Under the pieces are notes generated by a model that had not been told where the DNA came from, did not search any database, and worked only from the letters and a program-made list of their open reading frames with translations. Below are positions 2,186 through 22,302 of a stretch of DNA of 64,000 bases, piece by piece (positions within the stretch are counted from its first letter, which is position 1; the number at the start of each line of letters is the position of its first letter). The stretch is from Patescibacteria group bacterium (GTDB lineage: Bacteria; Patescibacteriota; Minisyncoccia; Phycocordibacterales; EsbW-18). The translations under genes were made by a program, and so were the position numbers. Location of the stretch: positions 24,985-88,984 of the forward strand of contig JBBTTA010000003.1 in the NCBI GenBank assembly GCA_038064475.1, in the 5' to 3' direction.

Positions 2186-2345
2186 GTTTGTTAAATAAAA
2201 AAACGGCTAACAAAACCGTTTGGCCCTTTGACGGGACAGAGTAGATCGACCCCTCGGCCGGCTTGTGAATTAAGACCTTTCGATCGCCAGCTGTCTACGG
2301 TTCTGTAACGACTATACTACCCGAAAACCCGCCTAGGTCAAGGCA
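2186..2345 (-). promoter_or_regulatory. Possible rplJ 5' leader (L10-leader-like autoregulatory region), not structurally verified
   Basis: About 160 nt untranslated region upstream of rplJ containing hairpin-forming segments; only its position supports this. Confidence 0.2.
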
Positions 2346-2392: not shown

Positions 2393-3385
2393 AAAAGTTG
2401 AGAGGAGTCCGCGTGAGTCAAGAAACGCTTGGCTTGTTGTAGCAGACATTGGGAACGGCTGACTTTGTTCGCTTGAAAGCGGAATGAGTTCGTAGGTGAC
2501 GTCTTCATCGATAGTTATTTTGATAGCAAGACCCGTCTGTACGTCGTCGTTCCAGTACTGATCGAAGATAAAATTACCTAATGAGTAGAAAATGGGTTTG
2601 TTGTTGTAGAGGCCGATGTCTTGCACAACGTGCGGATGTGCTCCGAAGATGACATCGACTCCGTTATCAATTAAGAAATGTGCAAATACCATTTGATCGT
2701 CGTTATGTGTCATCTCATACTCGTTGCCCCAGTGAATGACAACAGCGAGCGTAATTTCGGGAGGTACACTTTGCAACTCTTTTCTTAGTTCTTCTCTATC
2801 ATGTGACTGAATGGTTGTATCAAGTCCGATGAATGCAAGATTTGCGCGCGGCACAACATACACAGATCCCGTTTCTGTTGTGCCGCGCTTGCCGAACATC
2901 TCTACACCAGCGTCGGTAAGATATTTTTCTGTGTCTTTATATCCTTCTTTACCCTGATCAAACGCGTGATTGTTTGCAACACTTACGGTTTCAATGTTGT
3001 GTTGCGCAAGTGTTTCTGCAACTGACGGATCAAAACTAAATTGCATTGTGTTTGTGGCATCTCCATCACGTGTTGTGATAGGGCCTTCAAGATTTCCGAT
3101 GACCATATCAACAGAATTGAGAAGTTCCGTGATGTGTTCGAATGGGTGGTCATTGCCGTTTTTTCGCATGAGTGTGCGCACGTGACGACCAAGCATGATA
3201 TCGCCGACAACAAGAATCGTTGTCGGCTCTGGGTGAGGTGTGAGCGCTTCTCGAACAACTGTAATAGGAGCAGCCACAGCGGCAGGGATTTCAATTTCTT
3301 CCACATAAAATGAAAGAACCCTTGCGGCAATGCCAATAGCAACGAGAAATACCAACAGTATTTCAAACAATCGCCCAACCTTCAT
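2384..3385 (-). CDS. CapA/PgsA-like metallophosphatase (poly-gamma-glutamate synthesis family), membrane anchored
   Basis: Start chosen at MKVGRLFEILLVFLVAIGIAARV (TM anchor) at 3385; longer ORF to 3472 is possible. GDIMLGR, HWGNEY and FGAHPH calcineurin-like motifs. Confidence 0.7.
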   Translation of the reverse strand: MKVGRLFEILLVFLVAIGIAARVLSFYVEEIEIPAAVAAPITVVREALTPHPEPTTILVVGDIMLGRHVRTLMRKNGNDHPFEHITELLNSVDMVIGNLEGPITTRDGDATNTMQFSFDPSVAETLAQHNIETVSVANNHAFDQGKEGYKDTEKYLTDAGVEMFGKRGTTETGSVYVVPRANLAFIGLDTTIQSHDREELRKELQSVPPEITLAVVIHWGNEYEMTHNDDQMVFAHFLIDNGVDVIFGAHPHVVQDIGLYNNKPIFYSLGNFIFDQYWNDDVQTGLAIKITIDEDVTYELIPLSSEQSQPFPMSATTSQAFLDSRGLLSTFGG

Positions 3386-9679: not shown

Positions 9680-9807
9680 TCCTCAACTTGACATCTTCTC
9701 GTGCTTCGGTATACTTATAGTCACGAATACGGTTGATGAGAGGACTGCTCCGAAAGAGCGGTCCTCTTTCTTAAAAGCCCCAGCCGGTATCGATAACACA
9801 TACACCT

Positions 9808-11163
9808 ATGCCCTTCGATTTGAAAGCACTGAACGTTGTCTTGGAAGAACTCGAGAATGAACGCGGTATCTCAAAAGAAAAAACAATTGAAGCGATTGAA
9901 CACGCGCTTGCAACTGCATACAAAAAAGAATTTGGAAAACGCGATCAAGTTATTCGCGCGCATTTTGATATGAATGTCGGCACAACAGAATTCGAACAAG
10001 TAAAAACAGTTGTTGATGAAACAACAGTTCGCTTCAAAGAAGAAGGTGAGGAAGAAATCGAAACGAACGAAGGGCACATGCGACACAACGACACGATGTC
10101 AGAAGACGTTAGTGAAGATGGTGAAGTTCGTCTTCCACTCTTCTCTCCTGAAAAACACATGTTGCTTGCCGACGCACAAAAAATTAAGAAGGGTGCTGTT
10201 GTTGGAGATGAACTCATCTTCCCTCTCGACACAAAAGAAGATTTCGGACGCATTGCTGCGCAAACTGCAAAGCAGATGGTGATTCAAAAAATTCGCGAAG
10301 CAGAAAAAGAACACTTGTCGAAAGAATTCGGTGAGCGCGAAGGAGAAATTGTGTCAGGTACCGTGCAACGCATCGAGCGCGGAAATATTTTCGTTGACCT
10401 CGGACGTGCAGTTGGTGTGCTCGCATACGACGAACAAATCCCCGGCGAACGGTACCGTGCAGGTGAACGCATTCGCGCATACCTCTACCGCGTCGAAGAA
10501 TCTGCACGTGGCGTGTTCTTGCGTCTCTCACGATCACATCCAAACTTCCTCGTTCGTCTCTTTGAAAACGAATCCCCTGAAGTTGCACAAGGCACCGTTG
10601 AATTGAAAGCGATCGCACGTGAACCAGGTTCACGATCAAAAGTTGCGGTCTTCTCAAACGACTCACACGTTGATCCTGTTGGCGCACTCGTTGGTCAGCG
10701 TGGCGTACGCGTTTCAACCGTAATGTCAGAGTTGGGTGGAGAAAAAATTGACGTCATCGAATGGTCAGAAAATCCTGAACACTTTATTGAAGACGCACTC
10801 TCACCTGCAAAGATTATTTCTGTCGATATCACCGACGAAGAAGCACATCAAGCAGTCGTGCGCGTAACCGATGATCAGCAATCACTCGCAATCGGCCGCG
10901 GCGGACAAAACGTCCGCCTTGCCGCAAAACTCACCGGCTGGCGCATCGATATTCAGTCGACCAGCACAGCTGAAGGTGCTGAAAGTACACCCGTTGAGGC
11001 CTCTTCACCTGAAACAGAAATAGTGACAGAACCCGCCGAAGAAACTCCAACGGTATCAGCAGATCCAGAAACAGCTCCAGTGGCTGATGAAACACCAAAA
11101 GAAGAATCAACTCCTAGTGAAACAGGCAAACCAGCAACTTCAGAGGAGATAAAATTTAAATAA
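9808..11163 (+). CDS. nusA: Transcription termination/antitermination factor NusA
   Basis: 451 aa; N-terminal NusA domain, S1 domain (GEIVSGTVQRIERGNIFVDLG), KH domains (LVGQRGVRVS...IDVIEW), acidic C-terminal extension. Confidence 0.95.
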   Translation: MPFDLKALNVVLEELENERGISKEKTIEAIEHALATAYKKEFGKRDQVIRAHFDMNVGTTEFEQVKTVVDETTVRFKEEGEEEIETNEGHMRHNDTMSEDVSEDGEVRLPLFSPEKHMLLADAQKIKKGAVVGDELIFPLDTKEDFGRIAAQTAKQMVIQKIREAEKEHLSKEFGEREGEIVSGTVQRIERGNIFVDLGRAVGVLAYDEQIPGERYRAGERIRAYLYRVEESARGVFLRLSRSHPNFLVRLFENESPEVAQGTVELKAIAREPGSRSKVAVFSNDSHVDPVGALVGQRGVRVSTVMSELGGEKIDVIEWSENPEHFIEDALSPAKIISVDITDEEAHQAVVRVTDDQQSLAIGRGGQNVRLAAKLTGWRIDIQSTSTAEGAESTPVEASSPETEIVTEPAEETPTVSADPETAPVADETPKEESTPSETGKPATSEEIKFK

Positions 11164-17988: not shown

Positions 17989-18167
17989 CAAACAAAGAAA
18001 AGGCCGGCTACATGCCGGTCTTTTCTTATGTTTTGCGAGGCAGAGCAAGCAAACTACTTTGCTTGCGTGGAGAATCGAACGACGGAGCATGTTGCGAAGC
18101 AACAGCGAGTCGCGTCCAGCAGTACTTAGGAGCGAAGCGACTTAGTAACTGCGGGACATTCTCCCCC

Positions 18168-18598: not shown

Positions 18599-18919
18599 TT
18601 ATTTTGAACGAGCGCTGATGTGTATAGCTTCTTCTGCCCATTTTTTAATTTCTTCTGTACTCTCTAAAACATCAGACGGCACTTCGTAATAATTTTTTAA
18701 TACTTGTTTTTCGTTTGGACGAAAACAATCCATATCCTTCGCAATATATTTCTCTCGTGTTTCTTCGTTTGTTTTAAAATACAAAACGCCATCAGCAATC
18801 ACCGCAAAAAAGATGCCTTCCGAATATATGCCATATCCCCCAAACATTTTACGCACGTGAATATCAGGAAGTCCTTCAAGTTGGTCAACAACAAAATCTT
18901 TAAATGAGTCGTCCGTCAT
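18599..18919 (-). CDS. TfoX N-terminal domain protein
   Basis: 106 aa, HVRKMFGGYGIYSEGIFFAVIADGVLYFK matches the TfoX_N pattern. Confidence 0.7.
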   Translation of the reverse strand: MTDDSFKDFVVDQLEGLPDIHVRKMFGGYGIYSEGIFFAVIADGVLYFKTNEETREKYIAKDMDCFRPNEKQVLKNYYEVPSDVLESTEEIKKWAEEAIHISARSK

Positions 18920-18955
18920 ATTTGGATATTAACTTAGTATTTTCCTCTCCATGTG

Positions 18956-19062
18956 AGTGAGCTTATCCTGTTGAAACGACTTGCGAGCGCGACGGCGCGA
19001 GCACGAGGAAAAATTCAGTAGAATTTTATCCGTGCGTTTCAAAAGGACTAAGCGAACAATTG
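18956..19062 (-). repeat. 107-nt structured element immediately 3' of tRNA-Pro; inverted copy of 20167..20274
   Basis: About 90 percent identical to the reverse complement of 20167..20274; 12-bp terminal inverted arms cctgttgaaacg/cgtttcaa(a/c)agg; internal hairpin with compensatory changes. Confidence 0.8.
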
Positions 19063-19133
19063 TCGGGGCGCCGAGAATCGAACTCGGGCTATTTGGTCCC
19101 AAACCAAACGTACTACCGCTATACTACGCCCCG
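19063..19133 (-). tRNA. tRNA-Pro (anticodon TGG), no encoded CCA
   Basis: Minus strand cggggcgtagtatagcggtagtacgtttggtttgggaccaaatagcccgagttcgattctcggcgccccga; anticodon loop tttggga. Confidence 0.85.
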
Positions 19134-19233
19134 AAAAACAACTACCGCACAAACGCGCATTGCCCTACCACTGGTCTCGACAACTATATCACCTGTGTTC
19201 CCATTTCTCCAGTTTTTAAAGCTATTTTCTACT

Positions 19234-19638
19234 TCAACTAAAATCCCCCACATTCTCCAATAGCTCAACCCGAGCTTTTTTTGAACTCTCATCAATCCAA
19301 ACAGCTATCACATCTATCTGATACGGTGTTTCAGGTGAAACGTTATGATCTAATAGGTATGTCTGAATGGCGCGCGCGAGTCTTTTAAGTTTTTCTTTGT
19401 GGACGTTCTCTTCTGGCCTAAATTCATCCATTTTCGTTTCACGTGAAACGAAGTCCTCTACCATTTCACATGAAACAGCTTTAACTTCAACAAATCTAAG
19501 TGTTTTTCCTTTCTTTGCAACAATATCTATTTCTCCCCATTTCCTTAGATAATTCCTATCCAAGATCTTAAAGCCTTGTTTCATGAGAAACGTTTTTGCT
19601 ATATTTTCCCCTAAAATACCTGTTTTTGACGATATCAT
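19234..19638 (-). CDS. YraN/UPF0102 family endonuclease-like protein
   Basis: 134 aa; GEIDIVAKKGKTLRFVEVKAV matches the YraN core (restriction-endonuclease-like fold). Confidence 0.7.
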   Translation of the reverse strand: MISSKTGILGENIAKTFLMKQGFKILDRNYLRKWGEIDIVAKKGKTLRFVEVKAVSCEMVEDFVSRETKMDEFRPEENVHKEKLKRLARAIQTYLLDHNVSPETPYQIDVIAVWIDESSKKARVELLENVGDFS

Positions 19639-20095
19639 TGTGTAAATAGGCTAGTTTCAACCCGTTAGAAGCTACTTCTATGGCGTTGAATGTTTAAATT
19701 TCATAAAAATAGGCATATTTTGGTGCTTCTAACGGGTTTCATGTGTAACGGTTTCACGTGAAACGTTTTTTATAAAAACCCTTATTTCCCAACGTATTAT
19801 TAAATATAAAGTTTTCATAAAGACATGTCTTTTACACATATCCCCGTACTTGTCCCCATTATACCCTTACAAAATAAAGTTTTTTTAAAGGACATGTCTT
19901 GACTAAGTCTTAATGTCCTTTTAGAGATTACAAAAACCTCTTCGAATATATTAAGGACATTCCTAACTCTACCCCCCAACACTTCAGACTCCTGCCATTG
20001 AATCAAAAATAGGGGACGCTACCTTTTTATATAAATGATTTTCTTCTCTTATATTAAATTTGTTGTATACTGGCCTTCGTGCAAAGAGTACTTTT

Positions 20096-20166
20096 GCGGG
20101 CATGGTTTAGTGGTAGAACACGTCCTTGCCAAGGACGAGACGGGAGTTCGATTCTCCCTGCCCGCA
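20096..20166 (+). tRNA. tRNA-Gly (anticodon GCC), no encoded CCA
   Basis: gcgggcatggtttagtggtagaacacgtccttgccaaggacgagacgggagttcgattctccctgcccgca; anticodon arm cgtcc-ttgccaa-ggacg. Confidence 0.88.
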
Positions 20167-20274
20167 CAAGACGTTCGCATGTTCCTGTTGAAACGCACGG
20201 ATAAAATGAAGCTTCATTTTTCCTCGTACTCGCGCCGTCGCGCTCGCAAGTCGTTTCAACAGGACAAGCTCACT
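20167..20274 (+). repeat. 108-nt structured element immediately 3' of tRNA-Gly(GCC); inverted copy of 18956..19062
   Basis: See 18956..19062. Confidence 0.8.
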
Positions 20275-20396
20275 CTACCGTTTAATACAAAAGGCAAAAC
20301 GGTAGATCCCCAGAACATTCGACTCTGTCTGTATAAGTTCTCCCTGCCCATGTACCTCGTGACCAGCTTCCTTGCGTAGTACACTTAGAATAGATT

Positions 20397-20471
20397 GCTC
20401 CCGTAGTGAAATGGATATCACGACAGGCTTCGAACCTGTTATTGGGGGTTCGAATCCCTCCGGGAGCACCA
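20397..20471 (+). tRNA. tRNA-Arg (anticodon TCG), CCA encoded
   Basis: gctcccgtagtgaaatggatatcacgacaggcttcgaacctgttattgggggttcgaatccctccgggagcacca; anticodon arm acagg-cttcgaa-cctgt. Track ORF 20275..20499 (minus) overlaps it and is rejected. Confidence 0.85.
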
Positions 20472-20511
20472 AAACAATTCTTGGCAGTTTACTCACCAAA
20501 CGCCAGTATCA

Positions 20512-21972
20512 ATGAAAGCAATCCCCAAAGAGGTTCGTGCAGTCGTCGCCCTTCTTCAACACAAGGGCTTTGAAGCATACCTCGTTGGAGGTTGTGTGCG
20601 TGACATCATTATGGATCGCACGCCAAAAGATTGGGATGTGACGACAAATGCAACACCTAAAGAAATTCAAGCAACGTTTCCACATACGTTTTATGAAAAT
20701 GAATTCGGTACTGTTGGTGTGGTGAATGATGACACAACAGACGAGACACTTAAAGTCGTTGAAGTAACGCCATATCGCAAAGAGGGGACATACACCGACA
20801 AACGTCATCCTGATTCTGTTGAGTTTGGAAAAGATCTTTCTGAAGACCTCAAGCGTCGTGACTTCACGATCAATGCAATTGCATACGATCCAATCGCTGA
20901 ACAACTCATTGATCCATTCAAAGGACACGCTGACATTGAACAGAAACTTATTCGCGCAGTGGGAAATGCAACAGAGCGTTTTGATGAAGACGCCTTGCGT
21001 ATGCTTCGCGCTGTACGCATCGCAACTGATCTTGATTTTGATTTGGAAAAGGAAACAGCGGCCGCTATCCAAAAAATGGCTAAAAATATAGCTCAAATCT
21101 CTGGTGAGCGTATTCGTGACGAGATAACAAAAATACTTCTTTCAAAACATCCTCGTCGTGGTTTCATCATGTTGCACGAGTTGGAACTCCTCACACATAT
21201 CATTCCTGAACTTGAAGCGGGTGTTGGTATCGAACAAAACCAAGCGCACTCGTTCCGTGTGTTCGAACACATCTTGGGAACGGTTGAAGCCTCGGCGACA
21301 AAAAATCTTTCACTTGAAGTGCGTCTCGCTGCGCTTTTTCATGACATTGCAAAACCACATACGCGCGCATTTGATGACAAGAAACAAGATTGGTCATTTC
21401 ACGGACACGAAGTTGAGGGATCAAAACTTGCAAAGAAACGCCTGCAAGAACTTCGCTATCCAAACACTGTCGTAGAAAAGGTGGTGAAGCTTGTGCGCTG
21501 GCACATGTTTTTCTCTGACACAGAATTGATTACGCATTCTGCAGTGCGTCGACTCATTCGAAATGTGGGAACAGAAAACGTTGAAGATCTTTTGATGCTT
21601 CGCGTCTGTGATCGTATCGGGACAGGTCGTCCAAAAGAACGACCATATCGACTTCGCAAATATCAGGCAATGATTGAAGAGGTGATGCGCGATCCAGTTT
21701 CTGTCGGCATGCTTAAAATAAATGGCACAACGTTGATGGGTATGGGAGAGAAGGCAGGACCACGTGTTGGGTGGATTTTGCACGCACTCCTTGAAGAAGT
21801 TCTTGAAGACCCGCAACTCAATACAGAAACGTGGCTTATGGAGAAGGCGGAAGAGTTCAGGAAGCTACCTCTAAGCGAATTAAAGCGTCTGGGTGAGGCG
21901 GGAAAGGACGCACGCGAACATGCAGAGGAAGGGGAGGTAAAGAAGGTTCGTTCGCGATATCACGTGGAATAA
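20512..21972 (+). CDS. cca: CCA-adding tRNA nucleotidyltransferase with HD domain
   Basis: 486 aa; N-terminal pol-beta NTase (GGCVRDIIMDRTPKDWDVTT), central HD motif (LFHDIAKP). Confidence 0.85.
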   Translation: MKAIPKEVRAVVALLQHKGFEAYLVGGCVRDIIMDRTPKDWDVTTNATPKEIQATFPHTFYENEFGTVGVVNDDTTDETLKVVEVTPYRKEGTYTDKRHPDSVEFGKDLSEDLKRRDFTINAIAYDPIAEQLIDPFKGHADIEQKLIRAVGNATERFDEDALRMLRAVRIATDLDFDLEKETAAAIQKMAKNIAQISGERIRDEITKILLSKHPRRGFIMLHELELLTHIIPELEAGVGIEQNQAHSFRVFEHILGTVEASATKNLSLEVRLAALFHDIAKPHTRAFDDKKQDWSFHGHEVEGSKLAKKRLQELRYPNTVVEKVVKLVRWHMFFSDTELITHSAVRRLIRNVGTENVEDLLMLRVCDRIGTGRPKERPYRLRKYQAMIEEVMRDPVSVGMLKINGTTLMGMGEKAGPRVGWILHALLEEVLEDPQLNTETWLMEKAEEFRKLPLSELKRLGEAGKDAREHAEEGEVKKVRSRYHVE

Positions 21973-22302
21973 CAAAACGCCCCAGACAAGCGTCCAGAGC
22001 GTGAGGTTTTTAGATGATTCCGTATGAGAAGCGAAAGCTCTCACAAAGCGCGTGAAATTAAATTCGAAACCGCGCCGGTTTCATCATATATGGCAAGGCG
22101 TTGCCTTGCCTAGTGAGCCGAAGCTCGGAAGTAAAGAACTATAGCGTTCTAAGGACATTGAGACCTGAGGTCCCAAGTAGGAGAAAAAGTAGTGGGGTAC
22201 TATATTTTGTTGTGCGAACATGTCCTTGAGAACTTCTGGTATCTATTCTAAAGGACACCCATACTCTGTGTAAAGGACATCTGTGGACATCCGAAAATAC
22301 CT

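Follow-up and report, generated by a model that had tools for sequence, protein, structure and literature searches.

A conserved three-way-junction module behind tRNA genes in groundwater Patescibacteria

The stretch of DNA analysed here (the window) is 64,000 nucleotides of contig JBBTTA010000003.1, which comes from a Patescibacteria group bacterium in the Hainich groundwater metagenomes. The window contains two copies of a module of about 105 nt, each of which lies just past the 3' end of a tRNA gene and on the strand of that tRNA. The module is a conserved three-way junction without a match to a known family. It is probably an undescribed small structured RNA, or possibly a small mobile element. 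The reading preferred here, with a probability of about 50%, is that the module is transcribed within tRNA operons as a structured spacer or trailer RNA and is released or used when the tRNA precursor is processed.

The two copies form an inverted repeat with arms at positions 18955–19057 (copy A, minus strand) and 20173–20275 (copy B, plus strand). The repeat finder gives arms of 103 nt that are 88% complementary, with 1115 nt between them. Copy A follows tRNA-Pro(UGG), which lies at 19063–19133 on the minus strand (the start is 19062 or 19063 in ARAGORN and Rfam, and the Rfam tRNA score is 67.3 bits). Copy B follows tRNA-Gly(GCC), which lies at 20096–20166, or to 20167, on the plus strand in ARAGORN and Rfam. 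Neither tRNA gene encodes its CCA. The first-pass annotation of this DNA described an inverted pair that encloses the gene yraN and an AT-rich region, and this arrangement is confirmed. It also placed the shared sequence directly at the discriminator base of each tRNA, which does not hold. The shared sequence is separated from the tRNA by a linker, CAATT (5 nt, 19058–19062, minus strand) for copy A and CAAGAC (6 nt, 20167–20172, plus strand) for copy B. The shared start GTTCGC appears at +6 or +7 behind two different tRNAs and in equal orientation. Similarity between the copies begins with the shared CAA, is clear from GTTCGC onward and ends at AGCTCACTC. Two probes of 24–33 nt, one from each half of the unit, each match just copies A and B, where 0 matches are expected by chance, and an unfiltered covariance-model run finds no third copy in the 64-kb window. 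The locus arrangement is not an assembly artefact, because an identical YraN protein is present on 14 contigs (four of them 50–200 kb) and the flanked contigs that were inspected (L001 and L002, from two different samples) agree with the window in layout.

Both copies fold as a three-way junction, on either strand, with z of about −4.2 relative to shuffled sequences. The closing helix has about 21 bp and includes 19035–19046 paired with 18967–18978 in copy A and 20184–20195 paired with 20252–20263 in copy B. At its base is a conserved GUUCGC/GCUCAC pairing with a tandem U-C/C-U mismatch. P2 is a 10-bp hairpin with a URCU-type loop (19007–19031 in copy A, 20199–20223 in copy B), and P3 is a short hairpin with an invariant CGUC loop (18987–18998 and 20232–20243). 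The terminal arms of 12 bp that were originally reported (cctgttgaaacg/cgtttcaacagg) are present, but they are perfect in copy B only; copy A reads ccttttgaaacg, with one mismatch. The helix to which they belong is also longer than reported and includes the pairs GC...GC and GU...AC at its base. Copies A and B differ mostly in a compensatory manner. At the P2 tip, both partners of two base pairs change, as described in the first-pass annotation (aaaattc-tact-gaatttt versus aaaatga-agct-tcatttt), and an A-U pair in the outer helix becomes a G-C pair. The predicted fold of the joint transcript has the tRNA cloverleaf and the element folding independently. In all seven tRNA-linked sequences, from the window and from relatives, the three-way junction is independently the minimum-energy structure.

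No family in Rfam 15 credibly matches the element at E-values up to 10. In the window, only the tRNAs and a ribosomal protein L10 leader (2189–2318, minus strand; RF00557, 46.9 bits), which is an ordinary feature, pass the Rfam search, and no family passes in the relatives' copies. The hammerhead, twister-sister, pistol, hatchet, GEMM and signal recognition particle RNAs give no Rfam signal, and their core sequences do not fit. A protein-coding element is rejected, since both window copies have an open frame that is closed in the relative L005. A protein database that was searched with the spurious frame spanning the element, for copies called as genes, returns nothing.

The loci of relatives were fetched via YraN homologues and then via homologues of the CCA-adding enzyme. 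The module is present behind tRNA-Pro(UGG) in four other lineages of groundwater Patescibacteria; in the window there are two copies only. Loci that carry the element have these YraN identities to the window: 77% (L005–L007) and 64% (L140); 69% (L008–L011); and 67% (L012) and 72% (L139). The copies of the relatives and of the window have in common the ends GTTCGC and AGCTCACT, the junction CACG, the P3 region CTCGnnnCGTC and the loop types. The helix sequences are unrelated across lineages. For example, the closing helix is CCACAAAAAUAAC/GUUAUUUUUGUGUGG in L005 and CCUGUUGAAACG/CGUUUCAACAGG in the window. Seven of the eight clear copies lie 5–6 nt past a tRNA on the tRNA strand or, in L008, past a tRNA 3' fragment. 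The linker in the relatives is CAACC, CAATC or CCACC, the last being an encoded CCA followed by CC. ACAA precedes every copy, including one in L016 that has no tRNA, except that L008, L139 and L140 have ACCA instead, from the CCA that their tRNA encodes.

In the model-guided alignment of the eight copies, 95.3% of pair cells hold standard pairs, and both sides change in 29 of 40 pairs (69 cells). None of 500 shuffles reaches the observed pairing and double-change values. When the partners are slid by 1–3 columns, pairing falls to 38–47% and double changes fall to 9–14 pairs. RNAalifold recovers the same structure unaided, with 30 of 38 pairs compensated. Identity between lineages is 30–60% in paired columns and 63–91% in unpaired columns (44% and 78–83%, respectively, for L005 versus the window). 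Because the helices covary and the loops and junctions are better conserved than the helices, it is the fold of a single strand that is conserved. The kept features include non-palindromic ones (the U-C/C-U mismatch pair, the junction CACG, and the CGUC and UGCU loops), and simple palindrome homogenisation is therefore no explanation. The difference in identity between paired and unpaired columns excludes a decaying duplicate as well as a double-stranded palindrome bound by a protein. The earlier argument that the compensatory changes reflect a conserved fold and not a decaying duplicate is thus strongly upheld by the copies of the relatives, in covariation and in RNAalifold. Conservation of this kind marks a folded single strand in which it is the loops and junctions that are read.

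The concept of small RNAs derived from tRNA operon spacers has been reviewed (PMC8166272). The module lies where such RNAs from 3' external transcribed spacers (3'ETS) or internal transcribed spacers lie, in a tRNA operon spacer and on the tRNA strand. It would be made as RNA on the tRNA precursor, in the spacer 5–6 nt past the tRNA 3' end. Processing of the tRNA 3' end would cut the element off, with RNase Z as the presumed nuclease for tRNA genes that lack an encoded CCA. Another possibility is that the long helix is cut by an endonuclease, for example RNase III or RNase Y. The product may be a stable small RNA. It may instead act in cis as a processing or stability insulator for the RNA downstream, which would be the tfoX mRNA for copy A and tRNA-Arg and cca for copy B. 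Copy B would have originated in this lineage when the module was copied, as DNA, to a second tRNA, and the bracketing of yraN by the inverted pair would be a by-product of that step. Among the interpretations first offered for the inverted pair, a structured tRNA trailer or processing element is the best fit, given the orientation, the offset, the lack of a terminator, the covarying helices and the conserved loops; the transcription it presupposes is deduced from these features.

Several points weigh against this reading. Like its transcription, the processing of the element is deduced. The covariation set is small, with eight copies that represent about five lineages and all come from the surroundings of yraN or cca, and the alignment is structure-fitted. 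The best copy in L016 has no upstream tRNA. The module is patchy among close relatives and duplicated in the window, which is behaviour like that of mobile DNA. The 21-bp closing helix is static, with no switching mechanism apparent. The pairing statistics are also unusual for an RNA. The 317 pair cells include 296 Watson-Crick pairs, 6 G-U pairs and 6 A-C pairs, the last of which would be G-U on the opposite strand. A typical RNA family has more wobble pairs on one strand. Here, wobble pairs make up an unusually small share (about 2%), few changes are one-sided, and in seven of eight copies it is the antisense strand that folds slightly better. Neither the counts of G-U versus A-C nor the fold energies give a strand signal, and the pairing statistics are equally compatible with a fold that is used as single-stranded DNA. 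RNA on the tRNA strand is favoured because of the fixed orientation and offset, the location in apparent transcription units, the conserved asymmetric mismatches and loops, and the presence of a second, unrelated conserved structure in tRNA-Gly spacers of the same genomes.

This second conserved structure lies past tRNA-Gly (UCC or GCC) and its terminator, at approximately 18069–18165 in the window, 4005–4135 in L141 and 9735–9845 (minus strand) in L145, and at 2180–2256 in L005. Its closing stem, GGAGAAUCGAA...(G)AUUCUCC, surrounds two hairpins. GCCGGAGG and GAGGCGGGGUCG are kept in three of the four copies and are diverged in the window. The structure has no Rfam or ARAGORN match, and its stem looks similar to a tRNA T-arm in reverse complement. 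To carry structured, RNA-like sequences in the spacers of tRNA operons appears to be habitual in this clade.

Two other structured-looking regions occur near yraN in the relatives. Between exoIII and yraN, L013 (9510–9800), L015 (9440–9770) and L016 (9230–9540) have an RNA-like region of about 280 nt. A TATACT box precedes this region and a terminator follows it; the region is called as an open reading frame of 63–96 amino acids and has neither an Rfam match nor BLAST similarity to the window. In L012 (939–1230) and L138 (1117–1400), yraN is followed by about 290 nt of GC-rich, highly structured-looking sequence, which matches no Rfam family and does not occur in the window.

The main rival ranks second, and we consider it rather unlikely. 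In this explanation, the module is small non-autonomous mobile DNA, similar to MITE (miniature inverted-repeat transposable element), REP or PATE elements, and a transposase or recombinase supplied in trans acts on the folded single strand, with insertion preferentially just past tRNA 3' ends, at ACCA or ACAA. From the loci compared, the module seems to be lineage-restricted with a patchy presence, and copy B seems to be lineage-specific. Closer as well as more distant relatives lack it. There is no element behind the tRNA-Pro of L013, L015, L016 or L145, and the element is absent from L138. In L141–L143, which have the closest cca (85%), the spacer between tRNA-Gly(GCC) and tRNA-Arg is of similar length and different content, and it is without the element, which counts in favour of this rival.

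The loci L016 and L008–L011 are also compatible with mobility. The clear copy in L016, a fifth lineage, scores 53 bits with the model built from seven copies and 91 bits with a second model. It adjoins no tRNA; its neighbours are the RNA-like region downstream of exoIII on one side and the promoter region of yraN on the other. A second L016 copy, which is weaker, degenerate and tentative, converges on the clear copy at a distance of 8 nt. This non-tRNA site is empty in L013 and L015. In L008, positions 2944–3030 contain a 57-nt insert and a second, 30-nt copy of the tRNA-Pro 3' end, which together separate the intact tRNA-Pro from the element, and the same is found in L009–L011. Such a scar is typical of site-specific integration into a tRNA gene, here with nearly the whole insert lost, and the partial duplication beside the element points to the tRNA end as an insertion hot spot. 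Mobility is further suggested by the terminal inverted arms that bound the unit (12–13 bp, extendable to about 21 bp), by the presence of two copies in one genome at two different tRNAs with similarity confined to the interval from the tRNA end to AGCTCACTC, by the ACAA or ACCA before every copy, the tRNA-less one included, and by pairing that is almost purely Watson-Crick without strand bias.

Other properties are not those of a mobile element. There is no target-site duplication, and the flanks of copies A and B and of the copies in L005, L012 and L016 share no direct repeat. The arm sequences are wholly different across lineages, although a transposase would need conserved ends. In four lineages, the copies behind tRNA-Pro share one position next to the tRNA and diverge in a compensatory manner, which argues for long residence under selection and not for recent spread. 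Both copies in the 64 kb fall within one 1.3-kb stretch. No transposase of the insertion sequence type is found among the called genes, about 10 kb on each side, where the sole recombinase is an Xer-like integrase. Searches of phage, plasmid and viral collections give no match, and 34 loose-pattern viral matches all fail the covariance model. The initial suggestion of a MITE-like element at tRNA 3' ends is partly supported: it has the second tRNA copy, the one or two tRNA-less L016 copies and the patchy presence in its favour, and lacks a target-site duplication, multi-copy evidence, a transposase and conserved arms.

Two broader scans add no copies to the family. A metagenome-wide scan with the pattern GTTCGC..CTCGnnnCGTC..AGCTCAC gives at least 117 matches, and all those read are chance matches in high-GC DNA. 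A scan of a genome collection for exact-motif copies (a tRNA T-loop and both element ends, in species representatives) gives four matches, all by chance, and does not recover the window's own species; it tells little about the distribution beyond such copies.

A further explanation, which we regard as improbable, is that the element is a new self-copying kind that seeks tRNA 3' ends. It would be either a single-stranded DNA substrate of a recombinase or an RNA that is catalytic or processing-active at the junction of tRNA and trailer, for example by self-cleavage. Such an element would explain the fixed offset of 5–6 nt, the ACAA or ACCA before every copy and the rearrangement breakpoints at the boundary of tRNA and element.

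The sequences downstream of the two copies differ. Downstream of copy A (18599–18954, minus strand) is a 21-nt stretch, ACATGGAGAGGAAAATACTAA, at 18934–18954, followed by tfoX (18599–18919, PF04993) and then by a 126-amino-acid gene on the same strand. Downstream of copy B (20276–21972, plus strand) are a hairpin without a U-tract, tRNA-Arg(UCG) (20397–20471) and the gene for the CCA-adding enzyme (20512–21972). The terminator scan finds no terminator-like site after copy A or copy B, and there are promoter-like sites upstream of each tRNA. Read-through into tfoX or into tRNA-Arg and cca is therefore expected.

The lack of terminators is also one of the points against the element being an unusual transcription terminator or barrier that ends the tRNA transcription unit. 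The very stable helix directly past the tRNA would suit that function, the L005 copy has a U5 run about 10 nt after the helix, and the convergent copies in L016 could each terminate transcription for the other. Yet neither window copy has a U-tract, copy B lies between two tRNAs of one apparent operon, and ordinary terminators are present elsewhere in these genomes, for example past tRNA-Gly(UCC). The two conserved inner hairpins and the junction bases would be superfluous in a terminator, and we hold this explanation to be very unlikely.

The order of genes behind copy A raises the question of a cis-acting, structured 5' leader of the tfoX mRNA, which would control stability or translation after removal of the tRNA. 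Genes of the tfoX family regulate competence, and tfoX/sxy in Vibrio and Haemophilus are controlled via structured 5' untranslated regions, which counts in favour of a leader. In the window, L012 and L139, tfoX begins about 35–45 nt past the element on the same strand, with a conserved 21-nt stretch and no terminator between them. YraN, the product of the adjoining gene, was recently shown to act with the ComM helicase as the single-stranded DNA endonuclease by which the transformation D-loop is resolved (bioRxiv 10.1101/2024.02.06.579203). The neighbourhood is considered competence-related because of yraN and tfoX together, and it is also RNA-rich, with tRNAs, cca and RNase Y. Against a leader, copy B precedes tRNA-Arg and cca instead, the L016 copy has no downstream gene, and L005, L140 and L008 keep the element without a nearby tfoX, where it faces the end of yraN. 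No Rfam riboswitch matches, including c-di-GMP-I (GEMM); the loops read URCU and CGUC where that riboswitch has a GNRA tetraloop, and with about 21 bp the closing helix P1 is too long for a switch. A dedicated tfoX leader is unlikely as the general role because no tfoX follows the element in the other four contexts, and overall this explanation is quite improbable. The 21-nt stretch itself (ACATGGAKAGGAAAATACTAA; window 18934–18954, minus strand, and L012 1508–1528) is conserved between the window and L012 and L139 despite complete divergence of the element helices, and it may serve tfoX as a promoter or leader signal.

The segment between the two tRNAs (19134–20095) contains yraN (19234–19638, minus strand; PF02021, UPF0102) and the AT-rich region upstream of it (19639–20095). 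The AT-rich region likely holds the promoters of yraN and tRNA-Gly(GCC). The first-pass annotation also raised the possibility that the two copies are the arms of an invertible segment. A flip of the block made up of tRNA-Pro, yraN, the AT-rich region and tRNA-Gly would swap what follows each tRNA. The arms are indeed inverted, and in the alignment their 103 nt are 88% identical with an identical run of 36 nt, so that the pair could in principle recombine. In addition, tRNA-Pro and its element are on the same strand as yraN in the window, L012 and L139 and on the opposite strand in L005, L140 and L008, and short contigs break within the repeat. However, the lineages with the flipped orientation are single-copy, so their inversions were not made by the repeat, and tRNA blocks also flip without the element (L013 versus L016, L145 versus L142). 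An invertible segment is therefore not required by the comparative data. No invertase adjoins the segment, and the only gene inside it is yraN. The nearest tyrosine recombinase, the Xer-like integrase, is about 5 kb away and is kept in relatives that lack the repeat. Both L001 and L002 show one orientation; three further long contigs are grouped with L001 by mostly shared neighbouring genes, a grouping that is blind to inversion. Covarying inner hairpins are also unnecessary for recombination arms, and we judge an invertible segment to be highly improbable. The flips of tRNA blocks are possibly the result of recombination between similar tRNA genes.

The AT-rich region and yraN carry two kinds of short motif. 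Six copies of a 14-bp palindrome, GTTTCACGTGAAAC, with 0–2 mismatches, lie at 19328–19765, inside or just upstream of yraN, and none lie elsewhere in the 64 kb, where 0.5 are expected. The three coding-region copies that were inspected fall on V-S-x-E codons. The motif is found at the same places in L005, L012, L138, L013, L145 and L016, so it seems to be a conserved DNA site and is possibly a regulator binding site for the competence gene yraN. A link between the arm sequence of the window, TTGAAACG, and these palindromes is judged coincidental, as the arms are unrelated in other lineages. The second motif is GGACAT, which was initially described as a repeat of the AT-rich region. Three copies are present at 19890–19960, but the count for the whole window is at the chance level (30 found versus 29 expected). 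Motifs of the type GGACAT/AAAGGACA cluster at 19800–19960, upstream of yraN, and at 22150–22290, downstream of exoIII, and the matching intergenic regions of the relatives have similar motifs.

The AT-rich region is rejected as a replication origin. The window has no DnaA box (TTATCCACA) anywhere, and its GC-skew minimum is at about 38–39 kb. Perfect DnaA boxes (TTATCCACA/TGTGGATAA) flank the yraN region in L012, L013 (at about 9470 and 9880), L015, L016 and L138. Positions 544–1906 of L015, about 8 kb from yraN, contain adjoining genes for a reverse transcriptase (RVT_1) and bAvd, a pair that suggests a diversity-generating retroelement.

The covariance model R1 detects copy A at 18952–19063 (99.2 bits) and copy B at 20167–20278 (94.1 bits). 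As an RNA, the module would be a structured motif not described before, strongly supported by covariation and coming from an uncultured clade of Patescibacteria, a group for which we know of almost no non-coding RNAs. It would also add a bacterial case in which a sizeable folded RNA travels as a passenger on a tRNA precursor. As mobile DNA, it would show an unusual target choice for a non-autonomous element in its precise placement past tRNA 3' ends. The setting among the competence genes yraN and tfoX is a concrete place to look for a function. The family looks narrow, which keeps its practical value moderate.

One of the closest known systems is 3'ETS-leuZ of Escherichia coli. Both are in the spacer right past a tRNA and on the tRNA strand, both have a sequence under selection, and the element, like 3'ETS-leuZ, would be freed by tRNA-processing nucleases. 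Unlike the element, 3'ETS-leuZ is short and mostly unstructured and base-pairs with Hfq-bound small RNAs. The element is a 105-nt three-way junction in which the helices are conserved and not a seed sequence. The processing stems for RNase III in rRNA and tRNA operons are also comparable, in that they are near-perfect helices of about 20 bp with small conserved internal mismatches, lie in spacers of stable RNAs and could separate neighbouring RNAs. Those stems enclose a mature RNA, whereas the helix of the element encloses two small hairpins and follows a tRNA, and its cleavage is hypothetical.

The Correia/NEMIS, ERIC, RUP and REP/BIME elements, which are transcribed bacterial MITEs and palindromic repeats, resemble the module in size (about 100–150 bp), in terminal arms that form a long hairpin on transcription, in their intergenic position in operons, and in being duplicated and patchy. 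These families are multi-copy and have conserved ends and often target-site duplications. In contrast, the module has two copies, variable ends and no duplication, and its same-position copies covary. The attC sites of integrons share with it a structure that is kept while the sequence varies; attC sites are used as a folded single strand, and long ones have branched tips. The ends of the element, GTTCGC ... GCTCAC, fit the RYYYAAC/GTTRRRY boxes of attC on neither strand, no intI is called nearby and there is no cassette array.

The dicistronic tRNA and non-coding RNA genes of eukaryotes and viruses belong to another domain of life and to other RNA classes, and the analogy to them is in layout only. 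In plant tRNA-snoRNA genes and in MALAT1-mascRNA (PMC8457004), a tRNA or tRNA-like unit and a structured RNA form one precursor that is split by RNase P or RNase Z, which is the arrangement proposed here for the module and its tRNAs.

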